Shown one piece after another: positions 20,501 to 56,772 of a stretch of 64,000 nt of DNA (the stretch's first letter is position 1; the number at the start of each line of letters is the position of its first letter). Origin of the DNA: Promethearchaeota archaeon (GTDB taxonomy: Archaea; Asgardarchaeota; Lokiarchaeia; Sigyniarchaeales; SOKP01); contig JAFGOA010000110.1 of assembly GCA_016926735.1 (NCBI GenBank), forward strand, positions 2,682 to 66,681, read 5' to 3'. The notes below the pieces were generated by a model that made no database searches, was not told where the DNA came from, and worked only from the letters and a program-made list of their open reading frames with translations. The translations under genes and the position numbers were made by a program.

Positions 20501-23500
20501 ATTGTAATGAATCATAATCACTAATAGTATCTGTTGAATCTGCAGCTGAAAATTGAATATTTGTTTTTTCAGGATAAACAACATATGATATTTGGTTTTC
20601 ACCTAAATTGTAATTTTTATCCCAACTGTATCCAATTGCATCGAGTAGAAAAGTTCCTTTATTTTCTTTAAACGTTTCGAATCTTAATCTATCAATACCA
20701 TTAAATTCAACATTTTCTAAGACTATATATTCTGAATTGTTTACAGATATTTGAAAATGATTCAATGTACCATCAAAATTGATTTTTACAGGACACCATT
20801 GATATTCATTCGGAAGCTCAAGACCATTTATAGAGGATGATGTTATACCATCTAAAGAATATCTCCATTCATTATTATCTATGAATAATTTGAAGATTGT
20901 GCTTGTTCCTTCAAAAAAATTCAAAGACCATACAGAAGTAGAGACATTTGATGTTTGAAACCAAAATTCTAATGTTCCTTCATTTTGATATTCAATCTCG
21001 TTCTCCATCCATAAATTATTTAATGAACTTCTATCGCAAATTTGTATAACTTTTCCAAAATCATCTCCTGCATCAATATAAGATATATCTGAATGAATAC
21101 CATCAAAGAAATTTATTTCTTCCATGATAATCATCTCACCTCTTTCGAGTAATCCCCTTATCTCTATAGAACTCATATATATATCCTCTCTAATAGAAAG
21201 TGTGATTTTCTGTCTATTGAAGTTTGTATTTCCTTCTGGTGAGATAATATAATAATCTCTAATTCCAACGGGATCTACTACAACAAGACTTATTTCATGA
21301 GAAGAGCTTGTTATAAAATCAAACTCAATCTTAACACCTTTTCTTAAATATAAATCTTGAGATATTTCTGGTTCTATTATCAGTAATTGATCTGATTTTT
21401 CGCCTGCTACATAATGATATGTATTAGATGTTTTTTCAAATGTAATTGAATCAATCAATAAATATTCCTTATCGTAAAATACACCACCAATTTCAATATA
21501 ATCTATATAAATATCCTCTGAAATTGTAAAGGAAAGAGAATCCCAAGTTGGTGATACTTGGTTTAAATTAATAGATGTTGCCATTGGTGTTCCAGGTTCA
21601 ATAAGATCATAAGTTAATGCATTTCCATTAAAATCATACAGTTTTAATGTCAAAACATTTGATGTCCTTGAATCATATTTGATATTTATTTTATCTCCAT
21701 AATGAAGATAAGTATAGAGATTATTTGGAGACCGTAATCTTAATGTTTCAGTTTTATTAGTTTGGATATATATATATCCTTTCTCATTATTTTGATGTAT
21801 CTTAGAAATATTCATAGTATTATATATTAAAACTCCAAAATAATTGATACAATAAAGATGATCTTGATGAAATTTAATCCCTGAGATCTCTCGATCTGGA
21901 ATATTTGGATTCAGGGGATCAAGAGAGTATATGAAAACCTCCATTTGATCATTCACACCATCTTGATCTGTATCAGGATTATTCGGATCAGTATAATATA
22001 TATTAATTTCATCAATATCAGATAATTTATCTCCATCATTATCAGGCATAGTTAGATCATAAGGAGAACTATTTGGATCTAAAGGATTTGTACCTTGATA
22101 ATATTCTACAGAATCAAAAAATCCATCACCATCAGTATCAGGATTGTTTGGATCTGTTCTAGTATAACTAATTTCATAAAAATCCGTTAAATAATCAAAA
22201 TCACTATCACCAGTAAAACTTGAAGGATAAAATGATGATTCAATAAAATTCCAATTTTCATCATATTTAAGTATGTTATATGAACCTGTTTTATTTAAAA
22301 TATACCAGTATCCATCATAATAATCGAAATCATTTGTTATATCTGATTTTTTAATAATTTCTCCTAAATTATATGTTTCTATACAATGAGAAAAATCGGT
22401 TGTCCATTTGTATACTGTTTGATACCAATTAGACTCATCACCACTAACACCTAAAATATAACAGTAACCATCATGAAAACATAAAGCAGAAGGGTAATTT
22501 TCAATGGGACCATTTCCAATATCATTGATATCATAATAAATATTAGTATCTACCCAATTAAAATCATAAATATAGATACGATCATTATCAGTACAAAGAG
22601 CATACCAATAACCATCATAAAACCAAATATCTTCGAACAAAGCATCATCTCGGTAAATATTATAATGTTCTATATACTGTCCTCCTTTTTCGGGGTATTT
22701 AAAAATCATTTGACCACCAACTCCATAATGACAAAATATATACCAATAATCATCGTAAAAGAATGCACTTTTATACAAACCATCATTAACTCCCGAACAT
22801 AATTGACCAACATAACCTCCAAATTGATCTAAAGTATAATTTTCTTGTAGATAATTATATAATTCACCATGGAAGACAGTATTTTCATTATTATAAAGAT
22901 AATATTCTCTATCTCCTGAATCGAATTCCTCTCTATAGAGATAATTACTTAGATCTGGAGAAACGGGTGTTTCATGGTATATTTGGACCTCTTTTAATGA
23001 CATTATATCTGTATAAAAATATTGAATTAGTATTTGATTAACCTCTAAATCTTTATCTAATGTCATTGTTAGCGGTTGTGGAAGTACACCACTACTTTTG
23101 TAATTATAATAAAGATTGTATATATTAGAATAATCTACACCATTAAATTGTACCCGTATAACAATATAATACCCCTGATAACTTTCGTAGTTCGCTTGAT
23201 AATCACATTTTATAGAGAATGTATCATTTTCTTTTAATGATAAACCAAGATTTTCTGGACTTGCAATGACGTAATATCCTTCGCCTCCATGATATACCCA
23301 GTTATTTATAATGTCTTCACTATCTTGATAATATCGGAATTCTTTGTGGATGTAATCTTCTGTAAAGAAAGGGTTGGTTTCAAAGTCAGAGGCTACATCA
23401 TCATTATAAACTTCCCATCCATTTGGTTGGGATCCTATAATTCCTTCCCTCCAGTCGTAAGTTCCATAATATTCAGGTGAATATACATCAAAATTATCAC

Positions 23501-24887
23501 CAACATTGTAATAACTATCCCAACTATAACCTATTGAATCAATATATATTTTGCCAATAGTGTTACTAAAAGTACCTATTGAAAAAATAGATATTGGAGA
23601 ATCTAAAGATTCAAATGATCGTTTTACAAAGGGACTTCCATCAATATTCACTCTGAATTCATTATCACCCATTCCCCAATAACAACTATCTGATTTTATA
23701 TTTCTTTGATCTGTGCATATATCAATTCTCACATGATACCATACATTATTTTTAGGTGCAGGTAACGTTCCTAAAAGCAAAAAATTATCTCTTTTTCCAT
23801 CAAAACAATATTTCCAATTTCCATGATCAACAAAAATTGAAAATATTTCCTTCTTATCATTACATACTGCCATATAACCTGATGCATCTAATTGAGAGTC
23901 TTCGACAAGATAATGAAATTCGATTGTCCCAAAATCTTGAAAGTTAATATCATTAGTAAGATTATGGTCCGAAGTAGATATTGTTTCATTACTTATAATA
24001 CTCAAAACATTGCCATGAGAATTTTTTTCCTCAACGATTTCAAATGCATATTTACTATTTACAGATTCAGATAAATTCCATCCAAAAGGAATATCTCCTA
24101 TAATATCTTCTGAAAAGGAATAGGTTGCAGGGATTTCTGCACCTAATGAAAATTTAGGATTGGGAGCTTTATTTTTTATTTCCAAAAATCGAGTTCTCTG
24201 TGTTAAAGCACCCTGATCATCTTGGACGGTAACTGTAATAGGATAGACTCCTGCAGTGATCCATGTGTGTGTTACATAATTTTCATTTGAGACTAATTGT
24301 TCACCATCTCCTAAATCAAAAATATATGTGATATTTCCATTTTCTAAATCAAAATCACTGTCATTTATATTGACTGAAACCTGTATTATTTCATCCTCAT
24401 AAGGTCCATTTTGAGAATCCCATTGGAACTGGATATCATTTTGTTCAAATTGAGGTGGTCTATTAGATATCTCAATTAATATATCATCTCCATTAACATT
24501 AGTTATAGATTTCCAGATAGAATTTAATTTTCCCTCAAGTTGTCCGTATATGACTAATGTTGCATTGTAACTTCCTTCGAATTTATATACATACTCATAA
24601 TATCCCGCATTTATCTCTGATGATGATAAAAGAGTTTGATTTCCATCTCCAAAATTTAGAGAAACATAATCAGCAGGATCAAGATATAAAATATTCCATT
24701 GAAATCTTACTGTTTCTCCTACGTCTACTAACATGTCATCTGTATAGAAATATTCTATTTGAGTATCGTAAGTTAAAGCTAAAGACTGAGAAATGTCAGA
24801 TATTATTACAATAAATAATAAAGCAAGACTTATTCGCCATTTTTTAAATAATTTAGTTTTATTTTGCATAAAAATTTCCTTGTTCAT
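11505..24887 (-). CDS. Giant (4460 aa) surface protein: PKD domains, ConA/LamG-like modules, DxDxDG Ca-binding repeats, C-terminal multi-TM region
   Basis: Signal peptide; WDFGD/WSFGDG PKD motifs; many DPNNPDTDGDG-type repeats; hydrophobic helices near aa 3850-3960 and in the last ~200 aa. Confidence 0.85.
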   Translation of the reverse strand: MNKEIFMQNKTKLFKKWRISLALLFIVIISDISQSLALTYDTQIEYFYTDDMLVDVGETVRFQWNILYLDPADYVSLNFGDGNQTLLSSSEINAGYYEYVYKFEGSYNATLVIYGQLEGKLNSIWKSITNVNGDDILIEISNRPPQFEQNDIQFQWDSQNGPYEDEIIQVSVNINDSDFDLENGNITYIFDLGDGEQLVSNENYVTHTWITAGVYPITVTVQDDQGALTQRTRFLEIKNKAPNPKFSLGAEIPATYSFSEDIIGDIPFGWNLSESVNSKYAFEIVEEKNSHGNVLSIISNETISTSDHNLTNDINFQDFGTIEFHYLVEDSQLDASGYMAVCNDKKEIFSIFVDHGNWKYCFDGKRDNFLLLGTLPAPKNNVWYHVRIDICTDQRNIKSDSCYWGMGDNEFRVNIDGSPFVKRSFESLDSPISIFSIGTFSNTIGKIYIDSIGYSWDSYYNVGDNFDVYSPEYYGTYDWREGIIGSQPNGWEVYNDDVASDFETNPFFTEDYIHKEFRYYQDSEDIINNWVYHGGEGYYVIASPENLGLSLKENDTFSIKCDYQANYESYQGYYIVIRVQFNGVDYSNIYNLYYNYKSSGVLPQPLTMTLDKDLEVNQILIQYFYTDIMSLKEVQIYHETPVSPDLSNYLYREEFDSGDREYYLYNNENTVFHGELYNYLQENYTLDQFGGYVGQLCSGVNDGLYKSAFFYDDYWYIFCHYGVGGQMIFKYPEKGGQYIEHYNIYRDDALFEDIWFYDGYWYALCTDNDRIYIYDFNWVDTNIYYDINDIGNGPIENYPSALCFHDGYCYILGVSGDESNWYQTVYKWTTDFSHCIETYNLGEIIKKSDITNDFDYYDGYWYILNKTGSYNILKYDENWNFIESSFYPSSFTGDSDFDYLTDFYEISYTRTDPNNPDTDGDGFFDSVEYYQGTNPLDPNSSPYDLTMPDNDGDKLSDIDEINIYYTDPNNPDTDQDGVNDQMEVFIYSLDPLNPNIPDREISGIKFHQDHLYCINYFGVLIYNTMNISKIHQNNEKGYIYIQTNKTETLRLRSPNNLYTYLHYGDKINIKYDSRTSNVLTLKLYDFNGNALTYDLIEPGTPMATSINLNQVSPTWDSLSFTISEDIYIDYIEIGGVFYDKEYLLIDSITFEKTSNTYHYVAGEKSDQLLIIEPEISQDLYLRKGVKIEFDFITSSSHEISLVVVDPVGIRDYYIISPEGNTNFNRQKITLSIREDIYMSSIEIRGLLERGEMIIMEEINFFDGIHSDISYIDAGDDFGKVIQICDRSSLNNLWMENEIEYQNEGTLEFWFQTSNVSTSVWSLNFFEGTSTIFKLFIDNNEWRYSLDGITSSSINGLELPNEYQWCPVKINFDGTLNHFQISVNNSEYIVLENVEFNGIDRLRFETFKENKGTFLLDAIGYSWDKNYNLGENQISYVVYPEKTNIQFSAADSTDTISDYDSLQYFWDFGDNSSGYGKYISHNYLTSGNYNITLICKDNNGVTTSFTQIVKIYNTYPEIEIGNSFESLCINEGETIFFNAESWDDITDFASLDYYWSFETTEDSIYAFDDSILGGWRQSHLYEDDYSGKLGVMVKDSEGDYNYDLRRILVKNVDPLISIYDAYIISNISFEVVRSDVDKHANFSFELVADNLFAYKKELSLNQTNGLSVSSTAVETMMSLSNNWRVNVLSDGNLPEFSWFRVNIHLEFLDGQQLTITSGKIYGEESVDLSINLNPYWVNVIDNTFKYPITMLANIFDPSTDDITIDINYYATMLVEISCSNFIPCSETITISKELGPVSLTYRLFEEEGKKYFEIRANQKVYENNFYENDFPTQIDFSFDIYPIFNIEEFLIETMNLENLNIINYNVGTNRINAYAQDDDNGSNTQIIKFDSIFEFENLSPSLEIAIPNNDTINTEVSFIVKVSDFDQLESEKTSIIQEIIEDDIPSIPTDIAIRNGSICNTFGDLQYNDNEYVEFSTDHSFTEDIVFFDDFNDGVRDPNWQDHIIKFGLISEKNGYLNIQTNQFGIWEDWSIFFSAYAPYSTIPLSLFSTENWEVMVEIVNPYYDQIGFHNYGLLLYENEKNVWLFGASNEETMRLSKIVNGHKIDVIESPSDATYLKIRKMNNRFYFEYSIDNQNWNILEIIDNLEINPTHTGLYHRSTASLDFFNKNISFDNFTMRNIRESDYYLDFTSYLDLDDLQDEQIRNYIQLNADMKLDSSQIVNISIYNFNQNSWELIESTLISNDYYHFSYTIPEQGYLDIDNRIYIRFEILNDTNSFHFFLDKLQLMYSSSRILNYKSERIIFKGFDIANQEDGDIYIQEGLEYAIGDLSTKDNDYAIFNSTYNTETNMYNLSYVTGFSLNNALIDDKIDSISCLFSFRTNISQNMEFSIFNFTSNEWIFIDTFLAIEFSDFSYNFDINQSDLYLNNEILIKFELVNQISPFSMDLDLFRIDYEYLPHYILSDNIKYSELNLLKDSEPYATYIISDNYIDFVLKLKDLDQYRKFQVGILQFSFSSNLTQYIDIFLYNYSENSWSLIKDDMLIYEDIITEDYYIVNSTDFINSAGLFTIRFEGASEDIFKLYVENITMIYKISEVWGQFGDTMNSGDFISLGFLSNEYEWVYYGLTNFTRNGDYLVIITADDGNSVIRKGGKITILDMPPYAKIGFIKSEVVEDEEIQLTSELFFYGKYAEETRFEWSFGDGNYAYEQNPLHAWNIAGTYNITLKIVDSFGNSYTDNYTITIEEEAPEITGPYTFSGIQGQAVVLNIDVSDSFFDEMDLQYEWYNVPKDELDGKNPFSYDQKPVIFLDCGNYTYSLKVIDSSGMSNIIDFDIEIEDIPPVAYACSYMYHGARGNSINLHVYVYDSYLENDFTYEWTILNDDLDQLNGIIWYGTKTGVVTFVCMNTIMYMGQIIATDKYNRASTCDFYINSFIDTNGNTFSDELEAQLRENGIDNPLDAPDDDGDGISDILEDNVFPTDPTNPDSDNDGLYDGIDPSTGLGEFTYGTYQNNDDTDSDGLLDGVEVYGWNISINSLDVHVYSHPKEEDTDGDGLSDFEEYMLKYDPKNSDTDNDGFPDTIDPYPVSYDYDNDGLSDFEEYTLGTALDVADTDGDGLSDGEEVNGWYFKTNPLSQDSDHDLLSDTSEIMTSKTNKKYYSNNKYIGSERVEFTQAIYIHFDQQIQEAIGAQISFTLAFGEYGSSDTMDYGFSDHSIPNLKIKIKKDNLILYENYSFNERYVSQVIDIKDLIENATNVNYYGRYYIEINNYNAKCMLEDFNIEVIRYLDPNDSDFDNDGLLDGVETQMVVKGWDTIDFSSKYLNNLTTTNSTEEPYYNEIILEIPSIGIVDDALLDLEIISEQHLTESGDITIELVKDEIDNRIEDPVLISEFNKPLLVDEVYNYNIELNLKNLLNSRAISEYYGKYILRILINTESKTDNFTISKFSLDINTWIYAGINDWSAWITDPARWSTDKDGFSDSYEIEHGYNPQSEDTDGDGVWDDKDVDPLHNVILKIDFREAYGGSHLEAGVNLKHQGNDLTIWTPYTINSNTLQRQYYIDIDDNRKTIDLNFYLYDMHHIDFREIIQYKKIKIENKILDFLFGWLVEIVYKIIEIIRSIKIELPDTKIGEWNSRYTVQPNSETSYNFGKLYVKVSTIPLNRINTIAVFEENSTFSGHYESQEKMNVLILHVKDEPIGYGNPFVKGLNTVLIPTRIFEKTKLNAKFQKEELSTTPLAECEFSSIERDDSGESNIACENIDFVVIQEDLTAAQALEILNLLREVLINDTTSETALLNTYISTKYNNIAIEQMNVNNDVLGISPYNGELYQNSPQGDAPKNLWESILQNLENLGNLIISFVQAVAQIIEHIIKAIVDIAMEILSNLGDLMWILIRAAILILAYITLALDIIAFIQTFILFLAISLLLVPITGKFPSIGFLSIEFEILGSLIKLKAWIEWIEIKYYNMSIPILVSEYTFGTLIMNSEKGIILKDQINNMELNDLGGVVLLDSSNNLTKSTTDSQSNKSQILNDITIVEDRANSIKNSEINTEYLVHSEVDKITGVPGDKFRFSVDFVDDPVNLPNLIPDITIKITSPRGIETEVEMQTDDGSHYYRDIELYHTGIHSYKMILKNESEIIELYSTEIKQGPILTYGEDLNRCFSNVEISKDKCTTYDKIVYSVNYKGADILPDSVEPNIILKIWDQDKKLYEFEMNSIDKKYYEKTIQFSRENLYKWNISLRDQYDNNIYTTDEKTVIVNDLYKLESPYLSSFCLLISALATTIAFISNLTQIKYHPTDNPCRWPSITYWSICTGLIAISIGTLIHIINNEKNPSEACYNSAFAFLIMFISFSIGMYIGTKKSDLVAAPLIKTVLFILVGSFLDFFEDIFSTDNAIVQMLASLFSIISKGFGVILAGMEFTDPPDPKKTQKNNNDNRNRKEGFIFAGILFLFCIVFFITGRINDNKDADIV

Positions 24888-45433: not shown

Positions 45434-47134
45434 ATGGAAAATTATAAGCTTAAAAAGTTAGAACATTTCTCTGGAAGAGAAGGACCTTTAGTATTAATCA
45501 TAATGGATGGTATAGGGATTGCTGAAAAAAAGGATACTAATGCATTTTACCTTGCAAATACTCCTTTTTTAGATAAATTACAATCGGAAAAAAAATTATA
45601 TCTTGAAATTAAAGCTCATGGTACTGCTGTTGGATTACCTACTGATAATGAAATGGGTAATAGTGAAGTTGGTCATAATGCTTTTGGAGCAGGGAAAATT
45701 CCTAAACAAAGAGCTACTCTTGCAAAAGAAGCTATTGAATCAAAATCTTTATTTGATAGTGATAAATGGAAAACATTCAGTAATATTATCAATCAAAATA
45801 ATAAAAAGGTACACCTCATTGGTTTATTATCAGATGGTTATGTACATAGTCATATATCTCATCTAATTGGCATATTATATGGTGCTAAAGATTCTGGAAT
45901 TAAGAAAATTAGAATTCATACACTTTTAGATGGTAGGGATGTCCCTCCAAAATCTGCTTTAGAATACATCAACAAATTGGAAAATGAATTAACAAAGATA
46001 AATAAATCAGGTGATTTTGACTATCGTATTGCTTCGGGAGGAGGACGAATGCGAGTTACTATGGATAGATATAATTCAGATTGGAATGTTGTAAAAAGAG
46101 GATGGGATGCACATGTATGTGCTATACCAGATCAATTTTTAGGATATAATGGCTTTTTCAGTTCTGCTAAAGAAGCAATAGAAAAAGCTAGAACATTAGA
46201 TCCTGATTTAACAGATCAATATCTCCCTTCATTTGTTATAATAGATGAAAATAATATACCATTAGGAAAAATGGAAGATGGTGATGGGGTAATCTATTTC
46301 AATTATAGAGGAGATAGAGCAATTCAAATTTCTAGAGCTTTTGATGAAGGAACTGAATTTAAAGATTTTGAAAAAAAATGTAATCCAAATGTAATTTATT
46401 ACGGATTGCTTCAATATGATGAGAAAGAACACATTCCAAAACGATTTTTTATTGATCCTCCAAAAATAGACGTAACATTTATCGATTTTCTAAGTACAGA
46501 AAAGATACCTATGTTTGCTACAAGTGAAACTTTTAAGATAGGTCATTTATGTTATTTTTTTTGGGGAAATCGTGATTTGATTACAAAAACAGATTATATT
46601 AAAAAAGAGAATTATGATATAAGAGTATCTAAAAGTAGTTTTAATGAGGATATTATTGAAATTGTGTCATTTAAGTCTGAATTAATTGAGAAAAATCCCA
46701 AAATGAAAGTTTTGGAGATTAAAAATGAATTATTAGATGCAATTAGATCCAATAAATATAAGTTCCTAAGAGTTAATTTAACAAATGGCGATATGGTCGG
46801 CCATACAGGAAATATAGCCTCTGCAATGGTTGCTGCTGAGACTGTAGATACATGTGTAAGAGAAATAGTAGATTTAGTTAATAAAATAAACGGAATTGTT
46901 ATTGTAACTGCAGATCATGGTAATCTTGAAGATATGAGTAAAGAATGGCAGACTTCGCATACATGCAATCCGGTAATGTTTAATATCATTGATTCTCAAT
47001 ATAATAACGAATATACGATAAATAATGAAATTAAGGAACCAAGTTTAGGTAATGTTGCTGGAACCATCATAAATCTATTAGGATATGAGAATCCAAATAA
47101 TTTCATGGAATCCTTGATTAAATTCAAAAAATAA
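45434..47134 (+). CDS. gpmI: 2,3-bisphosphoglycerate-independent phosphoglycerate mutase
   Basis: IIMDG.G, MGNSEVGH, DGRD, GGRM, NYRGDR, NGDMVGHTG, TADHGN. Confidence 0.95.
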   Translation: MENYKLKKLEHFSGREGPLVLIIMDGIGIAEKKDTNAFYLANTPFLDKLQSEKKLYLEIKAHGTAVGLPTDNEMGNSEVGHNAFGAGKIPKQRATLAKEAIESKSLFDSDKWKTFSNIINQNNKKVHLIGLLSDGYVHSHISHLIGILYGAKDSGIKKIRIHTLLDGRDVPPKSALEYINKLENELTKINKSGDFDYRIASGGGRMRVTMDRYNSDWNVVKRGWDAHVCAIPDQFLGYNGFFSSAKEAIEKARTLDPDLTDQYLPSFVIIDENNIPLGKMEDGDGVIYFNYRGDRAIQISRAFDEGTEFKDFEKKCNPNVIYYGLLQYDEKEHIPKRFFIDPPKIDVTFIDFLSTEKIPMFATSETFKIGHLCYFFWGNRDLITKTDYIKKENYDIRVSKSSFNEDIIEIVSFKSELIEKNPKMKVLEIKNELLDAIRSNKYKFLRVNLTNGDMVGHTGNIASAMVAAETVDTCVREIVDLVNKINGIVIVTADHGNLEDMSKEWQTSHTCNPVMFNIIDSQYNNEYTINNEIKEPSLGNVAGTIINLLGYENPNNFMESLIKFKK

Positions 47135-47145
47135 TTTTCTTTTTC

Positions 47146-49884
47146 TTATTTTTCAAAATACTTTTCCCAAGGAATTTTTTTAAAATTAATAGATTTTAGA
47201 TATAATTTAATTTCATTGAATAGAATATCAGGAGAAAAAATCCAAGCTCCCTTATTATTAAAACTCACACATAAAATTTTCTCAATTTTAAACTCTTCTC
47301 TAATTAAATACGCATATGATGCTAATTGTGGTATTGATTTTAAAAAATGACCCTCTAGTGGTGATTCATCGGGTTTATAATCTGCAACAATAAGAGTTCT
47401 ATTATATATCAGTAGCAAATCAATATGACCCGTTAAAAACGTATCTTTATATGGTTTCCAAACATTTAATTCAATTCCTATTGCATTATCAACCATATCT
47501 AAGATTTTTAAAAGTAATTTATTGTGTTCTGGTCCCTGATGACTTTGCATCAGTTCATTTTTATTATAATGATGAGTTTGCGCTAAATCAATTAATTTTT
47601 GGACTATAAATTCTATATTATTTTTAGACCTTATATCCTGATTTTTATTTATCACAACAATTTTTTTTTCCGATATTAGTTTATTTGATAATTCCAATCT
47701 TAGGTGTCTATTCTCACGGTTATTATTTCCAAGAGATATTAATTTAAAATTAGAAATTCTTAGACATTTACCATATTTTGTAATAATATAATCTGGAAAT
47801 CCACTTATTTTGGTAATTTCCTCCAAATGGTAGAGTAATTTTTTTGGATAATTTTTGAGTTTAGATTTGATATTTTTTGATAATTTTGGACAAATCCGAT
47901 TTTGGATTTTTTTGTTAGATTTAATTAATTTTTTAGTATGAACCAGTTCACTCATATCTTTCATTCCTAAATTTGAGATAATTTCTCTATATCCAATAGA
48001 TTTTCTCTGTGTATAATTTCTATCTATGATAAATTGTCTATACTCAGGAAAATGTTTTTGAATCTGATTAAACATCGGAGCATAACCCTTTACTATTCTT
48101 TCTTTCGTATTCACTTTAGGAAAGATATCATATTTAAAAATATGAGCTATTACAATGATAAAGTCTTCATCTTTTACAATCCTCAATAAATCAAATATTT
48201 TTTTTTTAAAGAAGCTTTTTTGAATTGGTTTAATTATTTGATTAAATTTATTTAAAAAATTGTTTTGATGATATTCTTTATTGATTTGATTCGATAAAAT
48301 AGAAGAAATAAAGACTAATGCTGCTGAAATAGCTACACTAAATTTATAATAATCATGTAAAGCTTTAGAATCCCACCAAATATTAAAAATATCATCTAAT
48401 AATATATTTGATCTATGTAGATTTTTACTATTATAATTCAAAGCTTTATTTAATATATTAATATAATTTTTTACTTGATTTAGGGACTCTTTCTTATAAA
48501 TATCCTTTAATTTTTGAAATTTATTGTAAATTGAATTAAAATTCTTGATAGATAATATATTTTTTATCTTATCTTGAATTGAATTAACATCCTCGTAATT
48601 ATACTCACAATAAAAAATAATACTAAAATAAATTGATGATGCTGCTAAATTTCTAACTTCTAGAGTCTTTATTTCATATTCGGAGCAATTTAAAGAAATA
48701 ATAAGATCTCTGGCAAAATTTATACAAATTTTAGGAATCTTTAGAATATTTCCTAAATCCTCTAAATTAATAATTGTCTTTTCTAAATTAGAATTAGTCG
48801 AAAGAATTTTTAATTTTAATATATCAAAATTTTCATGATCTAAATAAGGAATAAGATTTCCTATATAATCAGTAAAAAGTTGAGCAATATAATATGAATT
48901 ATTAAGATTAGTATTTATAATACTAAATTCATGATTTTTATCTCTCTTTTGTAATTCATTACAGACCTCCATTAAAATATATATTATTCCTCCAGCAACA
49001 AGACGATTTTTTTTATTCTTTAATCTCTCATCATTTTTTATATTGTTTAATAGTAATTTTGCAACGTCTCGAGCATAATTTGGAATATTTAATGTTTTTA
49101 AAAATTGAAATAAAAGGCTATTTGTGCTTTCTTCTATTAAATGATTAAATTCAGTTCTAAAATATTTTCGATAATAATTTCCCAAACTTTTTGATTGTTT
49201 ATAGCCTAATTTTTCACTTATTTTACTAAAACTTATATTTTTCCGTAGAGACTTGCTATAAATATAAAATATTGAACCTGCGATTAATTTAGGTATAGGT
49301 TTGCTTGGAAATATAATTTTGTCAATTCTAATTAATTTAAATATAATTTCAAAAGATTTCCATATTTCTTTTATTTTTATAGATTTATTTAAAAAAAGAA
49401 TATAACTAATAACTTTTAAAAAGAGATTTCCTTCTTTACTATTTTGATTTTTAATAATCTTACTATTTTTATTATTAAGGATTGGAATATATAAAATAGG
49501 AATTATAAGTATTGAATCATCTTCAGAAAGTTCATGTTGTTCAAACCAATTATTAATAATTAAATTCTCTTGTATTGGAATTTGCACTCCATTTAAGGTA
49601 AAAAAAGCTATTTTTGTATTAATTTTGAAATGATTCATAATTACTTTCATTAATTCATATGTAGAGTATTCTTTTTCAGTAAAATATCCTGATTTATTTC
49701 TTTTTACTAAGTTTAAATCATAAATAATATCATCATGATTATAAGGTCCTTTACCTATTAATTCTGGATTATTTTGTTTGACGCCACATAATATAAATTT
49801 CATATTACAATTCATTCCTCTATTATAGATTTTCTTTAATTTACTCATTAAAATAAAATCTCTAAAGATATTGTGAATTTTCAA
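47146..49884 (-). CDS. Putative ubiquitin-like domain + repeated TFIIB/cyclin-like boxes + C-terminal PD-(D/E)xK nuclease
   Basis: C-terminus has IELNVW..TGHIDLL..IVADYKP..PQLASYA. The middle has LIAGSIFY, LVAGGIIY, LAASSIY and ISAALVF motifs. The N-terminus has FTLNGVQIP...HELSEDDSILIIP. The true start may be 49803-49815. Confidence 0.65.
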   Translation of the reverse strand: MKIHNIFRDFILMSKLKKIYNRGMNCNMKFILCGVKQNNPELIGKGPYNHDDIIYDLNLVKRNKSGYFTEKEYSTYELMKVIMNHFKINTKIAFFTLNGVQIPIQENLIINNWFEQHELSEDDSILIIPILYIPILNNKNSKIIKNQNSKEGNLFLKVISYILFLNKSIKIKEIWKSFEIIFKLIRIDKIIFPSKPIPKLIAGSIFYIYSKSLRKNISFSKISEKLGYKQSKSLGNYYRKYFRTEFNHLIEESTNSLLFQFLKTLNIPNYARDVAKLLLNNIKNDERLKNKKNRLVAGGIIYILMEVCNELQKRDKNHEFSIINTNLNNSYYIAQLFTDYIGNLIPYLDHENFDILKLKILSTNSNLEKTIINLEDLGNILKIPKICINFARDLIISLNCSEYEIKTLEVRNLAASSIYFSIIFYCEYNYEDVNSIQDKIKNILSIKNFNSIYNKFQKLKDIYKKESLNQVKNYINILNKALNYNSKNLHRSNILLDDIFNIWWDSKALHDYYKFSVAISAALVFISSILSNQINKEYHQNNFLNKFNQIIKPIQKSFFKKKIFDLLRIVKDEDFIIVIAHIFKYDIFPKVNTKERIVKGYAPMFNQIQKHFPEYRQFIIDRNYTQRKSIGYREIISNLGMKDMSELVHTKKLIKSNKKIQNRICPKLSKNIKSKLKNYPKKLLYHLEEITKISGFPDYIITKYGKCLRISNFKLISLGNNNRENRHLRLELSNKLISEKKIVVINKNQDIRSKNNIEFIVQKLIDLAQTHHYNKNELMQSHQGPEHNKLLLKILDMVDNAIGIELNVWKPYKDTFLTGHIDLLLIYNRTLIVADYKPDESPLEGHFLKSIPQLASYAYLIREEFKIEKILCVSFNNKGAWIFSPDILFNEIKLYLKSINFKKIPWEKYFEK

Positions 49885-49888
49885 TAAT

Positions 49889-50164
49889 TTAAATCAATTT
49901 ATGAATTGCTCTTGCTTTAAAATTGAAATAATTAAATTGATATATCCTTATTTTGCTAAATTCTTTTTTGACTATGATCTTTATTTTTACAAGATAGTTG
50001 AGATGTTTTTTAATAATCTGATGATTTAATTTGGAAAGTAGAATAATTTCAGATAAGGTGAGCTCTCCTTTTAAAGCAAGAAGTTTTAAGATTACTGTTT
50101 TCTCTCTTGAATCAAAAAGATCCTCAATTAGAATTATTCCTTCAAATTCATTATCATCAATCAT
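49889..50164 (-). CDS. ArsR-like winged-helix protein
   Basis: EDLFDSREKTVILKLLALKGELTLSEI...HLNYL. Confidence 0.8.
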   Translation of the reverse strand: MIDDNEFEGIILIEDLFDSREKTVILKLLALKGELTLSEIILLSKLNHQIIKKHLNYLVKIKIIVKKEFSKIRIYQFNYFNFKARAIHKLI

Positions 50165-50430: not shown

Positions 50431-50697
50431 ATGAAAGATATAGTATTACTTTCTGAAACAGGAGGAACCCTTGGATTTTCAATTCAACCAATGATCATTG
50501 ATAATTTAGAATTAGAACTAGGAAATCCAATTGAAATTGAGATTTTTAAAGAAATCAATAATAAAACTTCCTATACAATGACAAGACCACTAAGATTAAT
50601 AGGAAGTTCAAAAGGAGTGTCTATCAGATATTTTGTAGCTGAAAAATTGAATCTCAAATCAGGAGATATAATTGAAGTAGATATAAGGAAAATATAG
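50431..50697 (+). CDS. Tandem AbrB/MazE-like DNA-binding protein
   Basis: Two repeats: GGTLGFSI..IIDNLELELGNPIEI and GSSKGVSI..VAEKLNLKSGDIIEV. Confidence 0.75.
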   Translation: MKDIVLLSETGGTLGFSIQPMIIDNLELELGNPIEIEIFKEINNKTSYTMTRPLRLIGSSKGVSIRYFVAEKLNLKSGDIIEVDIRKI

Positions 50698-50759: not shown

Positions 50760-51575
50760 TTATACCAGAAATTTACTAAAAATTTCTCCAATTTCAGTAA
50801 GATTAAATATAACATCTTTTCCTCTTTTTGACTTTTTGATGACTCCATAATCAATAATTTTTGTTAAAGCATAAGATAGTTTGGATCTAAAAGATCTCTC
50901 TTTAATTTGATCTTTTTTGAGATTATTCATTAAATCTTGCATTTTTATTTTGTTTCCATGTGAAATTATCACTTTTAATATATTTCTTTGAAAATTTGTA
51001 AATTCTCTAAAAGGAAGAGCTGGAATTAAATTAATTTGATAATCACCTTTAGTCCATCCATTTTTTTCAAAATCTTCTTTAATAGTGTTGAGTTTTTTCA
51101 TAAATTCTTCTCTATTTTTTTTTAACTCTTCATCTTTAAGTATATCAATAATTTCTTGTATAAGGTAATTTGTGGTTTTTACATAAAATGGTATTATTAA
51201 ATTAGGGTATAATCCTGCAATATATATTGATGCAATCGCGAAAATTTTTGATGATGTACTTATATTGATATAAATTTTATTAACATTATTCTCACATTCT
51301 TTAGTGACAATTCTCTTTAATAGGCTTAAGCATGATTTTAAGTCTGTTATATTTGTTTCTTTAATTGAAACAAAATTCATTATTTTTTCAAGATATTCTT
51401 TAATTTCTTGAGCAAATTTTCTTACATTATCAGCGAGTGGTTTTTCAGAATTTTGTTTTGGTTCACTTTGAATTAAATATACATCTGTTACTCCAAATTT
51501 TTTAAATCCTGCCAAAACTCTATCTTTTTCTAAACCTACTGGGGCTATCATTACTAATCTATTTTGTATATTCAA
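50760..51575 (-). CDS. CARF-wHTH transcriptional regulator (DUF6293/Csa3-like)
   Basis: IAPVGLEKDRV, VYLI, IYINISTSSKIFAIA, C-terminal wHTH (LTEIGEIF). Confidence 0.8.
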   Translation of the reverse strand: MNIQNRLVMIAPVGLEKDRVLAGFKKFGVTDVYLIQSEPKQNSEKPLADNVRKFAQEIKEYLEKIMNFVSIKETNITDLKSCLSLLKRIVTKECENNVNKIYINISTSSKIFAIASIYIAGLYPNLIIPFYVKTTNYLIQEIIDILKDEELKKNREEFMKKLNTIKEDFEKNGWTKGDYQINLIPALPFREFTNFQRNILKVIISHGNKIKMQDLMNNLKKDQIKERSFRSKLSYALTKIIDYGVIKKSKRGKDVIFNLTEIGEIFSKFLV

Positions 51576-51781
51576 AATAATTCACTCTTATTTTTTATAT
51601 AATTAATTGTTTTTAATCAAATTAATAATTATTGATCTAGATTAAGCATTAGGTCGACAATATTTCTATCATAATGATTTGTATATACACAAGAAGTTTT
51701 TTAAATAATGGGGACTTAATGCATCACAAAACACTAGAATTTTGTGGATATCAAATATAGTGATTCAACTAGAGGTTTTGG

Positions 51782-52855
51782 TTGATGGAAATAAAGATTC
51801 AAAGTAGCGCGATAAAAAACTCAGTGATGTTTACTAAGAGTGAAATTTGTCCTTATCTAAGACTATGTAAATATTGTAATTCCATTCAAAAAAAAAGGTG
51901 CTGTCTCCATCATAGTGTTTCAAATAATGATATGATTATGTGTTATAACCTTGAATGTGTAAATTCTCATGACTGTATTGATGCAATAGAAAATATATTA
52001 AAACCAATCCAAATTCCATCCATTAAAGATATCATATCAAACAATTTTACAGTAAAAAAACCACTTTTAGATTTAAAAACAAATTTTATCCCAAGAATCG
52101 ATTTATTCTCCTCAAAAAAAAGAAATGAACAAATAAAAATTATCGAGAGAAATAACATACCAATTTTAGCAATAAGCTTACAAAATTTATTGTCCTCCAA
52201 AAAAGATCAGATTTTAAAAAATAATTTTAATAAAGATATTCATGATATAATAGATTTCAATGGAAAAATATTATTAGTTACAAATATCTCTGATCATTTC
52301 TGCGAAAAATTACTTTCAAATATCGATCAATATATTTCTGCATTAAAAATACTTAAACCTGATATAATAACCACTTTTGATGCTAATTTTTATTTAACAC
52401 AACCTATATTTATAACAAAATATCAACTTAATCAAATATTAATAGCAAATAATAGAATTAAAGATCTTAATATTTATCAAATTGGACTAGTTCCTCCAGT
52501 TCAAGTGAAATATTTTGAAATAATACTTGACCGGATGCTAAATAATAACTATAAAGTGATTGGAATCCCATTTTTAGAGATAAATCGGGATAAAAAAAGA
52601 AAATTAAAACAGAATTACATTGATATTCTGAATAAATTCAAACAAAAATATGATTTCAAATTTATTTTGATCTCTACAAATCCTGATAAGAAAATTATGT
52701 CAGATTGTTATATTAGCCAATCTTGGGTGAAAATTAAAAATTCTAGAAATCTTAATCTTCAAGAAAAAATAAAGTTATGGGATGTTAGAATTAAAAAAAA
52801 TTTGAAGGATTCAAATGAATCAAATAAAATTAAATCAATTTACCAATGGATGTGA
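51782..52855 (+). CDS. Cys-rich N-terminus + DUF4417-like (putative TIM-barrel) domain
   Basis: CPYLRLCKYC..CC..C...C....C; LKPDIITTFDANFYLTQP resembles the D..xxPDFSxYxDxP motif as I recall it for DUF4417. Confidence 0.45.
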   Translation: MMEIKIQSSAIKNSVMFTKSEICPYLRLCKYCNSIQKKRCCLHHSVSNNDMIMCYNLECVNSHDCIDAIENILKPIQIPSIKDIISNNFTVKKPLLDLKTNFIPRIDLFSSKKRNEQIKIIERNNIPILAISLQNLLSSKKDQILKNNFNKDIHDIIDFNGKILLVTNISDHFCEKLLSNIDQYISALKILKPDIITTFDANFYLTQPIFITKYQLNQILIANNRIKDLNIYQIGLVPPVQVKYFEIILDRMLNNNYKVIGIPFLEINRDKKRKLKQNYIDILNKFKQKYDFKFILISTNPDKKIMSDCYISQSWVKIKNSRNLNLQEKIKLWDVRIKKNLKDSNESNKIKSIYQWM

Positions 52856-53385
52856 TTAATATGGGTACTGGAATAAAAATACCTAAAGCTAAGCAACCCC
52901 CCACAAGAAGAATATCTGAAGATAACAAAAAAGTATTAATTATTCATGATAATAGAATTAAAGAATATACTGAAAAAGCACATAAAATAGGAGAAATGAT
53001 AGATAAAATAGATGGTTATGAAGCTGTGATAGATAAAGATCACTGGAATCCTGGTGAAAAAACTTCTGATACAGAAACGAATAATCGAGAAAAAGAAATG
53101 GTTAAAAAGTCTGATATTGCATATAGATTTATCCCTCCTACTTCAATAACAAAAGAAGAACGTCATGATGGATCTATTCGGGAAGTCAGAAAGGTCATAA
53201 AAGCAAGTAAACCACTAGTTGAACACTATTATCAAGACGCTAAAGATAGTCCAAACCGATCATTATCTGAAAAGAATTACAAAAAAAGGGAAACAATTCG
53301 AACAAAGAAAGGAGAACATATTCAAAGTAAAATAAAAGAGACTTTAGATAAAGTAAGTAAAGAAAATAATAAAAATGCAGATTAA
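52846..53385 (+). CDS. TIR/nucleoside 2-deoxyribosyltransferase-like protein
   Basis: KVLIIH...MVKKSDIAYRF...GSIREVRKVIKASKPLV, with Glu at the catalytic position; overlaps the upstream gene. Confidence 0.55.
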   Translation: MDVINMGTGIKIPKAKQPPTRRISEDNKKVLIIHDNRIKEYTEKAHKIGEMIDKIDGYEAVIDKDHWNPGEKTSDTETNNREKEMVKKSDIAYRFIPPTSITKEERHDGSIREVRKVIKASKPLVEHYYQDAKDSPNRSLSEKNYKKRETIRTKKGEHIQSKIKETLDKVSKENNKNAD

Positions 53386-53483
53386 ATTTTTTAGAGTTAA
53401 ATCAGAATCTAATATAGAGAGAGACATTTATATTAATAGAATGGAGATATATATCATCTTATAAAAAAGGGTTTGAAATAAAT

Positions 53484-54143
53484 ATGGTATATAAGAAAAG
53501 AATTTTTGTTTTAATGCCGCATAATGATGATTTTAATAGGATCTATGAAGAAAACATAAAAAAACCATTATCTTCATCAACAGTAGATATTAAAAGGGAT
53601 TATGATATAAATGAATCATCAAATATTCTTAATGATATAATTGATTCAATTAGGAGATCAGATATTATCATCGCTGATTTATCTACTCATAATGCAAATG
53701 TATTCTATGAACTTGGAAGAACCCATCAAATGAATAAATATACAATTCAAATTATACAAAATGGTGAAAATATACCTTTTGATCTTGCTCAAATAAGGAC
53801 TATTAGATATACTATTGAATTCAATGGACTAAAAAAATTAACAGAAAGATTAAATGATTATATCAATAATTATGATTATATTGATTATTTAAATGAACTT
53901 ATTGATGTATTTAGAGATAGTAGAGATTTTTGGCAAGCAATAGATAATGCAAATGTATTATTAAATCATGATCCTCTCCCTAAAGAACAATTAATTAAGA
54001 TAGTAGAAGCAATAATGAGTAATGCTCAACTAAGTAAATCATGGAGAGTAAAAGATATACTTAGCCCTATATTAAAAAAAGAAAAAGCTATTCTTCCAAA
54101 TCATTTAAAGGATTATTTAAAAAATATTGAATGGATTATATAG
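53484..54143 (+). CDS. Nucleoside 2-deoxyribosyltransferase/TIR-like domain + helical C-terminal domain
   Basis: IFVLMP...IRRSDIIIADLSTHNANVFYELG...IPFDLAQIRTIRY. Confidence 0.85.
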   Translation: MVYKKRIFVLMPHNDDFNRIYEENIKKPLSSSTVDIKRDYDINESSNILNDIIDSIRRSDIIIADLSTHNANVFYELGRTHQMNKYTIQIIQNGENIPFDLAQIRTIRYTIEFNGLKKLTERLNDYINNYDYIDYLNELIDVFRDSRDFWQAIDNANVLLNHDPLPKEQLIKIVEAIMSNAQLSKSWRVKDILSPILKKEKAILPNHLKDYLKNIEWII

Positions 54144-54152
54144 GTTTCTTAA

Positions 54153-54599
54153 TTATGGATTAATCAATAGATATACTAAAATGGATAATAGTGCAATAAT
54201 TAATGGAAGATAAAATAATAATTCTGATTTTGAAATTACAATTCTCAGTGTATGTTTTTCATCTTTTTCATATTTTTTATATTCCATATCAAATAATTTC
54301 ATAATTTTCCGTTTAGATTTATCATTAAATTCTTCAACTTTAGAATCATATAATCTCCTATATAGTTTCTCAAGTCTTAAATAATAAGAATCTAATATCC
54401 AAAAAGTAGAAAGCACGATTAATAAAACAAAGATTATCAGTATATTAATAATTGATAAGGTTAATACTATAATTGAAGCTAAAAGAGTGATTGACCAAGC
54501 TTTTATTAAAAAAGAATTATGAGCCATTCTCGTTATAACATTTTGAATAATTTCAAAATATTTACCAATTACATCATTATTAATATTATTTTCAGTCAT
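54153..54599 (-). CDS. TIR-associated 3-TM membrane protein (candidate effector)
   Basis: IIQNVITRMAHNSFLIKAW...FWILDSYYLRLEKLYRRLYD; three TM helices; divergent from the ThsB-like TIR. Confidence 0.7.
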   Translation of the reverse strand: MTENNINNDVIGKYFEIIQNVITRMAHNSFLIKAWSITLLASIIVLTLSIINILIIFVLLIVLSTFWILDSYYLRLEKLYRRLYDSKVEEFNDKSKRKIMKLFDMEYKKYEKDEKHTLRIVISKSELLFYLPLIIALLSILVYLLINP

Positions 54600-54685
54600 G
54601 CTTAAAGTATAAATATATAAGGAAAGTTATTAAGTTTTATTTAATAAATTCAAACTGAAAAGACATAAAATTTAGAGGAATAGAA

Positions 54686-55072
54686 ATGATAATTTTCTTA
54701 AGTTATAAATACGAAGATAAGAGTTATGCTGATGGAATGGATGGTTTTTTAAATAATCCAAATAACAAATACAGAAATTTAACTGAACGAGAAGAAAAAG
54801 ATTTACGTCCAAGAGGAGAAAATGTTTGGAAAAATTATTTAAAAGATAAAATAAGAAGATGTAATGCTTTAATATGTTTAATTGGAAATAATACACACAA
54901 TGCTCAAGGAGTAATATATGAACTTGAAGTAGCAAATTCTTTAAAGAAGAGAATAATACCAGTAAGAATACCTGACACTACAGGAGCAGCACCTCAAATT
55001 ATCAAAAAAAGAAAAATTATCTCATATAATGCTAGAGAAATAAATAATGAACTTAGTAAAAAAAAGTCTTAA
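54686..55072 (+). CDS. ThsB-like TIR domain protein (MTH538/DUF1863)
   Basis: IFLSY..ED, LICLIGNNTH, VIYELEVA..LKKRIIPV. Confidence 0.88.
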   Translation: MIIFLSYKYEDKSYADGMDGFLNNPNNKYRNLTEREEKDLRPRGENVWKNYLKDKIRRCNALICLIGNNTHNAQGVIYELEVANSLKKRIIPVRIPDTTGAAPQIIKKRKIISYNAREINNELSKKKS

Positions 55073-55189
55073 TATATAGTCTAAAATTAAGAAGTATTCA
55101 ATAAGATTTTTAAAAAAACTTATAATTGTTTCATACAATATATTCTTCAATTAAACGGTATTATATATCTTCCAAAAGATAAATTAAAA

Positions 55190-56152
55190 ATGATATTGAA
55201 CCCCCAGAGTTTATGGAGATATGTTCTTCTAAAAGAAGTTGATAGAATATTTGATAGATCTTTAACTCCCACATTGATTTATTTTGTTGAAAAAGTATTT
55301 CCGGAAAGTTATACTAAGGAAAATATTTTAAATGATTTGAAAGATTGTAAGATTAAATGGAAAGAAACAATAGATAACGTAGAATTTTATTTTAACCTTG
55401 TGGTTTATAGAATTGATATTTCAAAGAGACATAAAAATACTTGGAAAATTAATGTTCTTCATTTAGTTAAGAAAGAAAAATCAGGGATAAATTTCTTAAT
55501 TTCACCAACTTCACCTTGTATTTATGCTAATGAAGCTGTTGCTCATGCATTTGGAAAAACATATTTTAAAGATAGTAAAGATCTTTATCCTTTTGCAGGA
55601 ATAATCACTGATTTATTTATAAATATTGAATTAAGGAAACTTTTGAAAAAAGAAGAAAAAATAATACAGCATACGTTTAGAGAATCAGAGGGAATTATTG
55701 AGGATAAGAAAGTTAAAGAAATTGATCTACCAATAAAATCTTATCAAGGAAATGATCCATATATTTTCATTAGCTACTCTCATAAAGATAAAAAGCTAAT
55801 TTATTCACAAATTAAATGGCTTAATGATAAAGGGTTTAATATTTGGTTTGATGAGGGAATTATGCCAATGAGATCATGGGAAAAAGTTATACCTGAAAAA
55901 ATTTTTGATTCATCAATATTCATAGTCTTCATCTCAAAAAATTCAGTTACAAGTGATAATGTAAAGAGAGAAATAAGCTATGCAATTAGACATAAAACAG
56001 GACATATTCTCCCAATATACATCGAAGATACTGAGCTTAGTAAAGATTTAGATTTTAATTTAAAGCCAATTCAAGGAATAATGAAGTATCAATTTTCAGA
56101 TGAAAATTATAAATTGAAAGTGATCGATACTTTAAAAAAGAAAATTTATTGA
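55190..56152 (+). CDS. Unknown N-terminal domain + C-terminal TIR domain
   Basis: YQGNDPYIFISYSHKD, IWFDEGI, FISKNSVTSDNVKREISYA. Confidence 0.9.
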   Translation: MILNPQSLWRYVLLKEVDRIFDRSLTPTLIYFVEKVFPESYTKENILNDLKDCKIKWKETIDNVEFYFNLVVYRIDISKRHKNTWKINVLHLVKKEKSGINFLISPTSPCIYANEAVAHAFGKTYFKDSKDLYPFAGIITDLFINIELRKLLKKEEKIIQHTFRESEGIIEDKKVKEIDLPIKSYQGNDPYIFISYSHKDKKLIYSQIKWLNDKGFNIWFDEGIMPMRSWEKVIPEKIFDSSIFIVFISKNSVTSDNVKREISYAIRHKTGHILPIYIEDTELSKDLDFNLKPIQGIMKYQFSDENYKLKVIDTLKKKIY

Positions 56153-56235: not shown

Positions 56236-56772
56236 TTCTATTTCTTCAATGGAAATAGAGAAGGGTACATAAATTCTGCTTGTGAAAAATATGTTGAAAT
56301 AAAATCAGATCCTTCAGAAATGATTGAAGATAATCCTAAAATGAAAGCATATGAAGTAACGGAAGAAGTTATAAAAGCGATTAATTCTGAACACTATAAG
56401 TTTATTCGAGTTAATCTTGCGAACGGAGATATGGTAGGACATACAGGAAATATTAAATCTGCAATAATCGCTGCGGAGACTGTAAACGAATGTGTAAATA
56501 AAATCGTGGATTCAGTAATTAATAATAATGGAATTGCTATCGTTACTGCGGATCATGGTAATCTTGAGGATATGAGTTTAGAATGGCAAACTTCACATAC
56601 ATGTAATCCTGTTATGTTTAATATTATAGATCCTCAATATAAGGAAGAATATAATATAAATTATGAATTAAACAATCCTGGATTAGGAAATATTGCCGCT
56701 ACAATCTTAAATTTACTTGGATTTGAAAAGCCAGAAGGCTATAAAAAATCTTTGATTAAATTTGTAATTTAA
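56236..56772 (+). pseudogene. gpmI: Stranded 3' third of a second gpmI allele
   Basis: Begins abruptly at YFFNGNR; NGDMVGHTG, TADHGNLEDM and WQTSHTCNPV are colinear with the C-terminus of 45434..47134; no SD and no N-terminal domains. Confidence 0.9.

Follow-up and report, generated by a model that had tools for sequence, protein, structure and literature searches.

The 912-aa protein encoded at positions 47146..49884 (minus strand) of the 64,000-nucleotide stretch of DNA analysed here, referred to below as the window, is in our reading (probability about 0.55) the nuclease of a homing element similar to the WHO elements of yeasts, predicted to cut the native allele of a phosphoglycerate mutase gene (pgm) and to bring a resistant replacement for it. 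The protein comprises a ubiquitin-like domain, four TFB/cyclin-fold repeats and a RecB/Cas4-type PD-(D/E)xK domain. Its gene is convergent with a chimeric pgm, from the end of which it is separated by 12 bp; the displaced native 3' end of pgm lies beyond it, and the same layout recurs at other genes. Since the nuclease gene sits between the chimeric pgm and the displaced 3' end, as in the layout of WHO elements, a selfish gene-targeting nuclease is more likely than the antiviral decoy suggested by an earlier note on this DNA, made from the sequence alone.

The intact pgm (45434..47134, plus strand; Pfam iPGM_N and Metalloenzyme) encodes a 2,3-bisphosphoglycerate-independent phosphoglycerate mutase of 566 aa, with a native 5' part and a foreign 3' part. 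Its DNA is 83% identical to that of the same-genus genome G031 up to position 46459, but only 51% identical over 46460-46552 and 60% over 46553-46754. The recoded block recognised by this comparison (46460..46754, plus strand; codons ~343-440) changes a conserved metal-binding stretch, adds 15-16 residues and is the candidate resistant allele. The displaced 3' end begins at codon 374 and lies on the plus strand at 56239..56772, 9.1 kb away, beyond defence-type cargo. It was identified by its DNA and amino acid identity to G031 (90% at the amino acid level), and 93 bp at the start of the recoded block are missing from it; its DNA identity to the intact copy is 73%. Over the recoded block, the DNA identity of this remnant is 88% to G031 and 58% to the intact copy of the window. 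As the remnant is 88% identical to G031 and the intact copy 51-60%, the native sequence is that of the remnant, and the foreign block is in the intact gene. The identity to G031 falls from 86% in the 5' part of pgm to below 50% in its 3' part, and the two parts give discordant trees. Of the two reciprocal constraints, one is rejected (p-AU 0.001), whereas the other, which holds the genus together in the tree of aa 343-440, is not (p-AU 0.10).

The chimeric pgm recurs in the genome G030, where the nuclease gene is 92-95% identical but broken, with a stop near codon 73 and one additional base in a run of A. The broken gene is joined directly to a shorter pgm remnant, which is followed by a gene of 277 aa and by a second remnant, an arrangement resembling decaying WHO clusters. 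The recoded pgm allele is present also in G029, where no nuclease gene occurs in the 2.8 kb that remain to the contig end. A same-strand pgm remnant was found at none of 20 other pgm loci of the family within the DNA examined. At one locus (L064:5962-6330; G034:C93) about 90 bases of the pgm 3' end recur as an inverted repeat directly after the gene, which may be an assembly artefact.

The layout was scored at 24 loci of fusion nucleases, hand-picked from long frames among the matches listed in the nuclease search (all but 23 of its matches) and in the search with a second clade of TFB repeats. The gene scored was the first one past the stop of the nuclease gene, and a locus was positive if a partial copy of this gene (at least 55% identity, 30 aa, less than 70% of the gene) lay within 20 kb across the nuclease. 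Such a copy is present at 6 of the 24 loci. Half of the loci have at least 8 kb of DNA on the 5' side, and in these the layout occurs in 6 of 12 cases (5 of 11 without the window), the other six failing the rule; the remaining 12 loci have less than 8 kb. By comparison, such a copy exists for 3 of 314 other genes in the same loci and for 7 of 2476 genes of the source genome of the window (G000), pgm included. Four targets are represented, namely pgm, a polyferredoxin gene (in three genomes), a fucose-isomerase-like gene (with two stacked 5' fragments) and a CxxCxxCC gene, and three of the positive loci are one element. The 3' end of the nuclease gene always faces the intact copy in layout-positive loci, and the displaced fragments at fusion loci terminate at conserved motifs. 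There were three near misses: an Nre gene cut by a contig end, a fragment of 51% identity and an inverted case. Four other partial duplications of G000 (C190:7219-10839, C194:1906-7292, C222:25655-41056 and C41:56710-58716) have cargo between their copies and enclose no nuclease recognisable by eye, and therefore the layout either arises without the nuclease or outlives it.

One more locus, that of the homolog P0002, was examined after the idea of homing had been formed. An intact VTT-domain gene, convergent with the nuclease gene, is located there 17 bp from the stop of the latter, and one GPP34-like cargo gene is followed by a piece of the VTT gene (aa 183-276) at 67% identity. The same neighbour gene occurs at locus L164, where the sequence ends on the 5' side. 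In L043 (G056:C115) the polyferredoxin gene occurs in three forms: a 5' piece reaching to aa ~190, a complete copy located behind the nuclease, and a 3' piece that starts at aa ~196, the pieces being 11.5 kb apart. Stacked remnants are present in G064:C30, as in G030.

The PD-(D/E)xK unit (aa ~660-912; 47149..47907, minus strand) consists of a helical cap and a RecB-type core, assigned by motifs and by a model with pLDDT mostly of 70-91, and its conserved catalytic residues (H787, E805, D822, D835, K837, Q853 and Y857) are all intact. The nearest solved folds are those of Cas4, Exo5, MGME1, RecE and AdnAB, which are mostly exo- or single-strand nucleases and not site-specific double-strand cutters. 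The unit shares its fold and the motif order E, D, D-x-K, Q-x-x-x-Y with the RecB/Cas4/Exo5/MGME1-type nucleases (PF12705). It differs from them in having no helicase and no four-cysteine iron-sulfur staple such as that of Cas4, as it contains only C665, C707 and C872, of which only C872 is conserved, and in belonging to a Lokiarchaeia family that has no name and includes a conserved stand-alone member.

This family is large: 177 relatives of the unit were found among cluster representatives, and the unit occurs in 121 of 135 family genomes. The named members of the homolog clusters are hypothetical proteins of Lokiarchaeia/Promethearchaeota. At 26 of the 29 best loci the relative is a stand-alone gene of ~240 aa in constant synteny with two others, one for a small membrane protein and one for a large helical one; the stand-alone genes form one clade (support 99), and that of G000 is located at C212:775-1482 (plus strand). 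It matches no NCBIfam family and is a conserved, unnamed Lokiarchaeia nuclease. The remaining relatives are fusion proteins whose N-termini are of five or more unrelated kinds, including giant-protein tails, a ThiS domain, other repeats and the second TFB-repeat clade (hhalign E 2e-5; 11 of 135 genomes). The ThiS protein (P0065, 733 aa), in which a true ThiS domain ending in diglycine is joined to the same nuclease, is a second, independent beta-grasp fusion. The middle region of the window protein is rare; among the matches listed (150 of the 177) it is broadly covered only by P0001, the G030 ortholog, and P0002, and among 400 genomes of the phylum it occurs only in G000 and G030, with P0002, P0006 and L164 as additional cases.

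Results of our analysis indicate that aa ~150-580 form four degenerate TFB/cyclin-fold repeats, of which two are fairly well supported and two (1 and 4) more weakly; all of them score below the Pfam cut-off of PF00382. Repeat 1 (aa ~150-248; 49141..49437, minus strand) retains a TFB-like helix-turn-helix and gives weak matches (hhalign E 0.03; 6.7 bits in the G030 ortholog). Repeat 2 (aa ~250-345; 48850..49137, minus strand; hhalign E 3e-4, Pfam TFIIB E 0.1) scores 9.5 bits with an HMM of the TFB repeats of its own genome, which exceeds the scores of all 300 local shuffles. Repeat 3 (aa ~365-460; 48505..48792, minus strand; hhalign E 5e-3) is modelled as five helices at pLDDT 48-68, and the corresponding repeat of P0002 scores 14.5 bits. 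For repeat 4 (aa ~462-580; 48145..48501, minus strand), 15 of the 16 top structure rows obtained with the AlphaFold model (mean pLDDT 50) are entries of TFIIB, Brf and cyclins, where the chains in complexes were named from entry titles and such Z values may be generic for helical bundles. The five-helix cyclin-fold repeats and the L-x-L-P and AA-x-x-Y signatures are shared with the archaeal TFB/TFIIB/Brf core (PF00382; PDB 1AIS, 3H4C). That core comprises two repeats, whereas the window protein has four degenerate ones with a nuclease fused to them, has no B-ribbon (N-terminal zinc ribbon), only C26 and C33 being present before residue 300, and does not retain the G-R/K-x-x-x-G loop typical of TFB repeats.

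The ubiquitin-like beta-grasp domain (aa 28-135; 49480..49803, minus strand), which has an insert of ~25 aa, was not matched in family searches and was recognised by profile searches. A four-row profile of this module has 14 hits, spread over 9 of 135 family genomes. The 13-row profile built from these hits can be aligned over its full length to one of 26 Asgard PF00240 proteins; the score is 30.6-36.1 (E 4e-5 to 2e-6), compared with no more than 16.7 for 100 column shuffles. This indicates the beta-grasp fold on sequence evidence, the structure model having pLDDT below 40 across the domain. No diglycine follows it, and the sole GG of the 912-aa protein is at 298, within repeat 2. The closest TFB-repeat homolog, P0002, lacks the domain, so the domain is not a constant part of such proteins.

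Apart from that of the G030 ortholog, homologs of the module are located in long ORFs, four of them of 11,241-13,858 aa, and in these proteins of 11-14 thousand residues the module precedes a variable C-terminal part. The giant of G000 (C69:34024-68145, plus strand; 11,373 aa) carries it at aa ~10,464, ~900 aa before the end, ahead of a helical region and of a different, HNH-like tail (labelled by eye); similar ORFs with differing tails, within the same size range, are present in G084, G112 and G120. Giants of this type look like a polymorphic nuclease-toxin system. A single tail in G034:C65 holds both the module and this PD-(D/E)xK nuclease, and the ubiquitin-like domain of the window protein begins exactly where the conserved DP motif of the giants stops. 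Both the ubiquitin-like module and the nuclease domain are found in tails of very large Asgard proteins, a size class for which the aloposon Otus/Ephialtes and others have been described (PMC8813620); the accessible part of that source does not mention a nuclease tail. The window itself contains, at 11505-24887 (minus strand), a 4460-aa ORF with PKD domains and bacterial TSP3 repeats.

The three domain calls of the earlier note thus stand: the C-terminal RecB/Cas4-like set (E, D, D/E-x-K and Q-x-x-x-Y motifs) goes together with the core fold, the approximately four TFIIB-like repeats agree with HMM, hhalign and structure searches, and the N-terminus aligns with a profile of ubiquitin-family proteins. 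The ORF is present in the window and real; contigs from four runs, including perhaps the run behind the window itself, support its reading frame. The architecture, which the note did not recognise as a known one, is without annotation, with no NCBIfam family matched and no family among the PADLOC 2023 models at E 0.01, i.e., no match to a catalogued defence system, and the gene does sit in an island. No account of the architecture or of such archaeal elements was found in the titles and the beginnings of abstracts of a literature collection with few of the subscription journals. What the analysis adds is the ubiquitin-like module with its link to the tails of giant proteins, pgm and the VTT gene as targets, and a measured background.

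In the yeast WHO elements, according to the accessible parts of two sources (Coughlan et al. 2020, PMC7282813; bioRxiv 10.64898/2026.08.13.744650), the native FBA1 allele is cut, a resistant 3' half is installed and the old half is displaced downstream. The likeness to them includes a free-standing nuclease gene that directly follows a full-length glycolysis gene whose 3' part has been replaced, a duplicated 3' fragment displaced beyond the nuclease, clusters with stacked fragments and pseudogenes, discordant histories of the 5' and 3' parts, and occurrence in either orientation. Unlike WHO proteins, which combine LAGLIDADG and a zinc finger, the window protein has a PD-(D/E)xK domain, TFB-like repeats and a ubiquitin-like domain; the element is archaeal, carries 6 kb of cargo, its cleavage is a prediction, and relatives of its nuclease affect a wide range of genes, replacing either the 5' or the 3' part. 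With PD-(D/E)xK and cyclin-fold repeats in place of LAGLIDADG and zinc finger, it would work like a WHO and is not a member of the WHO family, nor is it a Cas4, TFB or ubiquitin-modifier family member. The intronless homing of free-standing phage endonucleases (PMC2988022, accessible in part) similarly involves a modular intergenic nuclease, the predicted cut being in a conserved neighbour hundreds of bases away; those enzymes are of GIY-YIG/HNH families, and in that part of the source co-conversion replaces the allele and a displaced gene end is not described.

The unit of the proposed element is the recoded 3' part of pgm with the nuclease gene and hitch-hiking cargo. The TFB-derived repeats would read, via their helix-turn-helix faces, a conserved native pgm stretch near codon 374, and the PD-(D/E)xK domain would cut or nick the native allele, probably at or just 5' of this codon. 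Repair from element-bearing DNA would install the resistant 3' part, followed by the nuclease gene, and displace the old 3' end downstream. The ubiquitin-like domain, in a weaker proposal, may be a module from a giant-protein tail that sets the half-life of the nuclease or is a relic.

The nuclease gene is preceded, at a distance of 4 bp from its start, by a gene of a 91-aa winged-helix protein (49889..50164, minus strand; Pfam HTH_9 E 2.5e-5), a possible regulator, which has no homolog in 37 stretches around other nuclease genes. An AbrB-like protein of 88 aa (50431..50697, plus strand) matches TIGR02609 below cut-off (E 0.006). The cargo (50760..56152), not found in G029, G030 or G031, encodes a CARF-wHTH protein (271 aa), proteins of 357 and 179 aa without assignment, a TIR/nucleoside-deoxyribosyltransferase-like protein (219 aa), a PDC-M50A-like protein (148 aa), a TIR protein (128 aa) and a TIR-fused protein (320 aa). 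The CARF-wHTH gene (HFX_2341-like) is divergent from the 357-aa gene, whose product has an N-terminal cysteine cluster; together with the 179-aa gene they form, at 50760-52855, a possible uncatalogued defence or signalling unit. At 53484-56152, the PDC-M50A-like membrane protein is encoded amid three TIR-like genes, of which the 128-aa TIR weakly matches PDC-M50B too. No integrase or recombinase was found among the 10 island ORFs, two of which have no annotation, nor was an att repeat found, and the island ends share only the pgm duplication.

The links to giant proteins could also mean that the gene is an orphan nuclease-toxin module, a toxic detached tail held in check by the winged-helix protein. 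This tail would keep the island stable or act as a cassette for swapping, and the pgm duplication would be only a recombination scar. The occurrence of the module in giant tails of four genomes, its combination with this nuclease in G034:C65, the start of the window domain at the end of the DP motif and the coincidence in G030 of upstream-region loss with a broken nuclease gene agree with this. We nevertheless consider it unlikely, as no giant-protein gene of that kind lies near the window gene, P0002 and the second TFB-repeat clade have the target layout but not the module, and no homolog of the winged-helix gene was found in the 37 stretches around other nuclease genes. More doubtful still is that the nuclease is a passenger, the donor's next gene, which arrived with foreign DNA through a single homologous crossover within pgm combined with a single illegitimate join, the two events that make up homology-facilitated illegitimate recombination. 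Such an origin would fit the lack of an integrase or att repeat, the four nuclease-free duplications of G000 and the 93 bp missing from the remnant, but it leaves unexplained the stacked remnants of G030 and G064:C30 and the fact that in 6 of 12 loci and in L163, against a background of ~0.3-1%, the neighbour is a nuclease gene whose 3' end always adjoins the intact copy.

The least likely of the explanations is that of the earlier note, in which the protein mimics TFB as a decoy, or binds promoters as a sensor, and sets off an abortive nuclease upon viral infection. The architecture given in the note was confirmed, and the gene lies in an island; the proposed function obtained no direct support. 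In its favour, the TFB-like repeats are real, the neighbours are of defence type (TIR, CARF, PDC-M50), the source genome (3.88 Mb, AT-rich, with ubiquitin-family genes) has nine canonical TFB genes, and TFB is encoded by Asgard viruses (PMC13700489, accessible in part). Against it are the lack of a PADLOC match, the absence of the B-ribbon and of the TFB loop, the many unrelated N-termini taken by the same nuclease domain, and the setting of the relatives, which mostly occur among housekeeping genes and adjoin split or replaced ones, with no constant defence setting; the G030 ortholog, too, is without defence cargo. The absence of a ubiquitin-like domain from P0002 and the missing terminal diglycine likewise speak against the proposed function. 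Homing itself has to be weighed against the exo- or single-strand activity of most of the nearest folds, the nuclease-free duplications of G000, the six well-covered loci that fail the rule, the G029 allele with no nuclease in 2.8 kb, the unrejected unity of the genus in the aa 343-440 tree, the three positives that are one element and the hand-picking of loci.

Beyond the pgm locus we propose, tentatively and with less confidence than for the homing nuclease itself, that Lokiarchaeia host a large class of WHO-like elements, in which one PD-(D/E)xK cutter is combined with exchangeable DNA-reading arrays, including TFB cyclin folds as modular readers. Cassettes marked by the ubiquitin-like module may be exchanged with the tails of proteins of 11-14 thousand residues, which could deliver them between cells, and the elements, needing no integrase, may alter housekeeping genes and carry defence cargo along. 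In the accessible parts of the two sources (PMC7282813; bioRxiv 10.64898/2026.08.13.744650), WHO elements are described only from yeasts, and a prokaryotic counterpart with an unrelated nuclease would mean that homing by replacement of a gene end evolved more than once. The pgm locus supplies both alleles and the break point to within ~100 bp. If the proposal is true, TFB-fold arrays that read sequence would put a domain of a basal transcription factor to a new use and might serve as a scaffold for programmable nucleases, Asgard archaea would gain an integrase-free route to defence islands, and some of their housekeeping genes would be mosaics that yield misleading gene trees.
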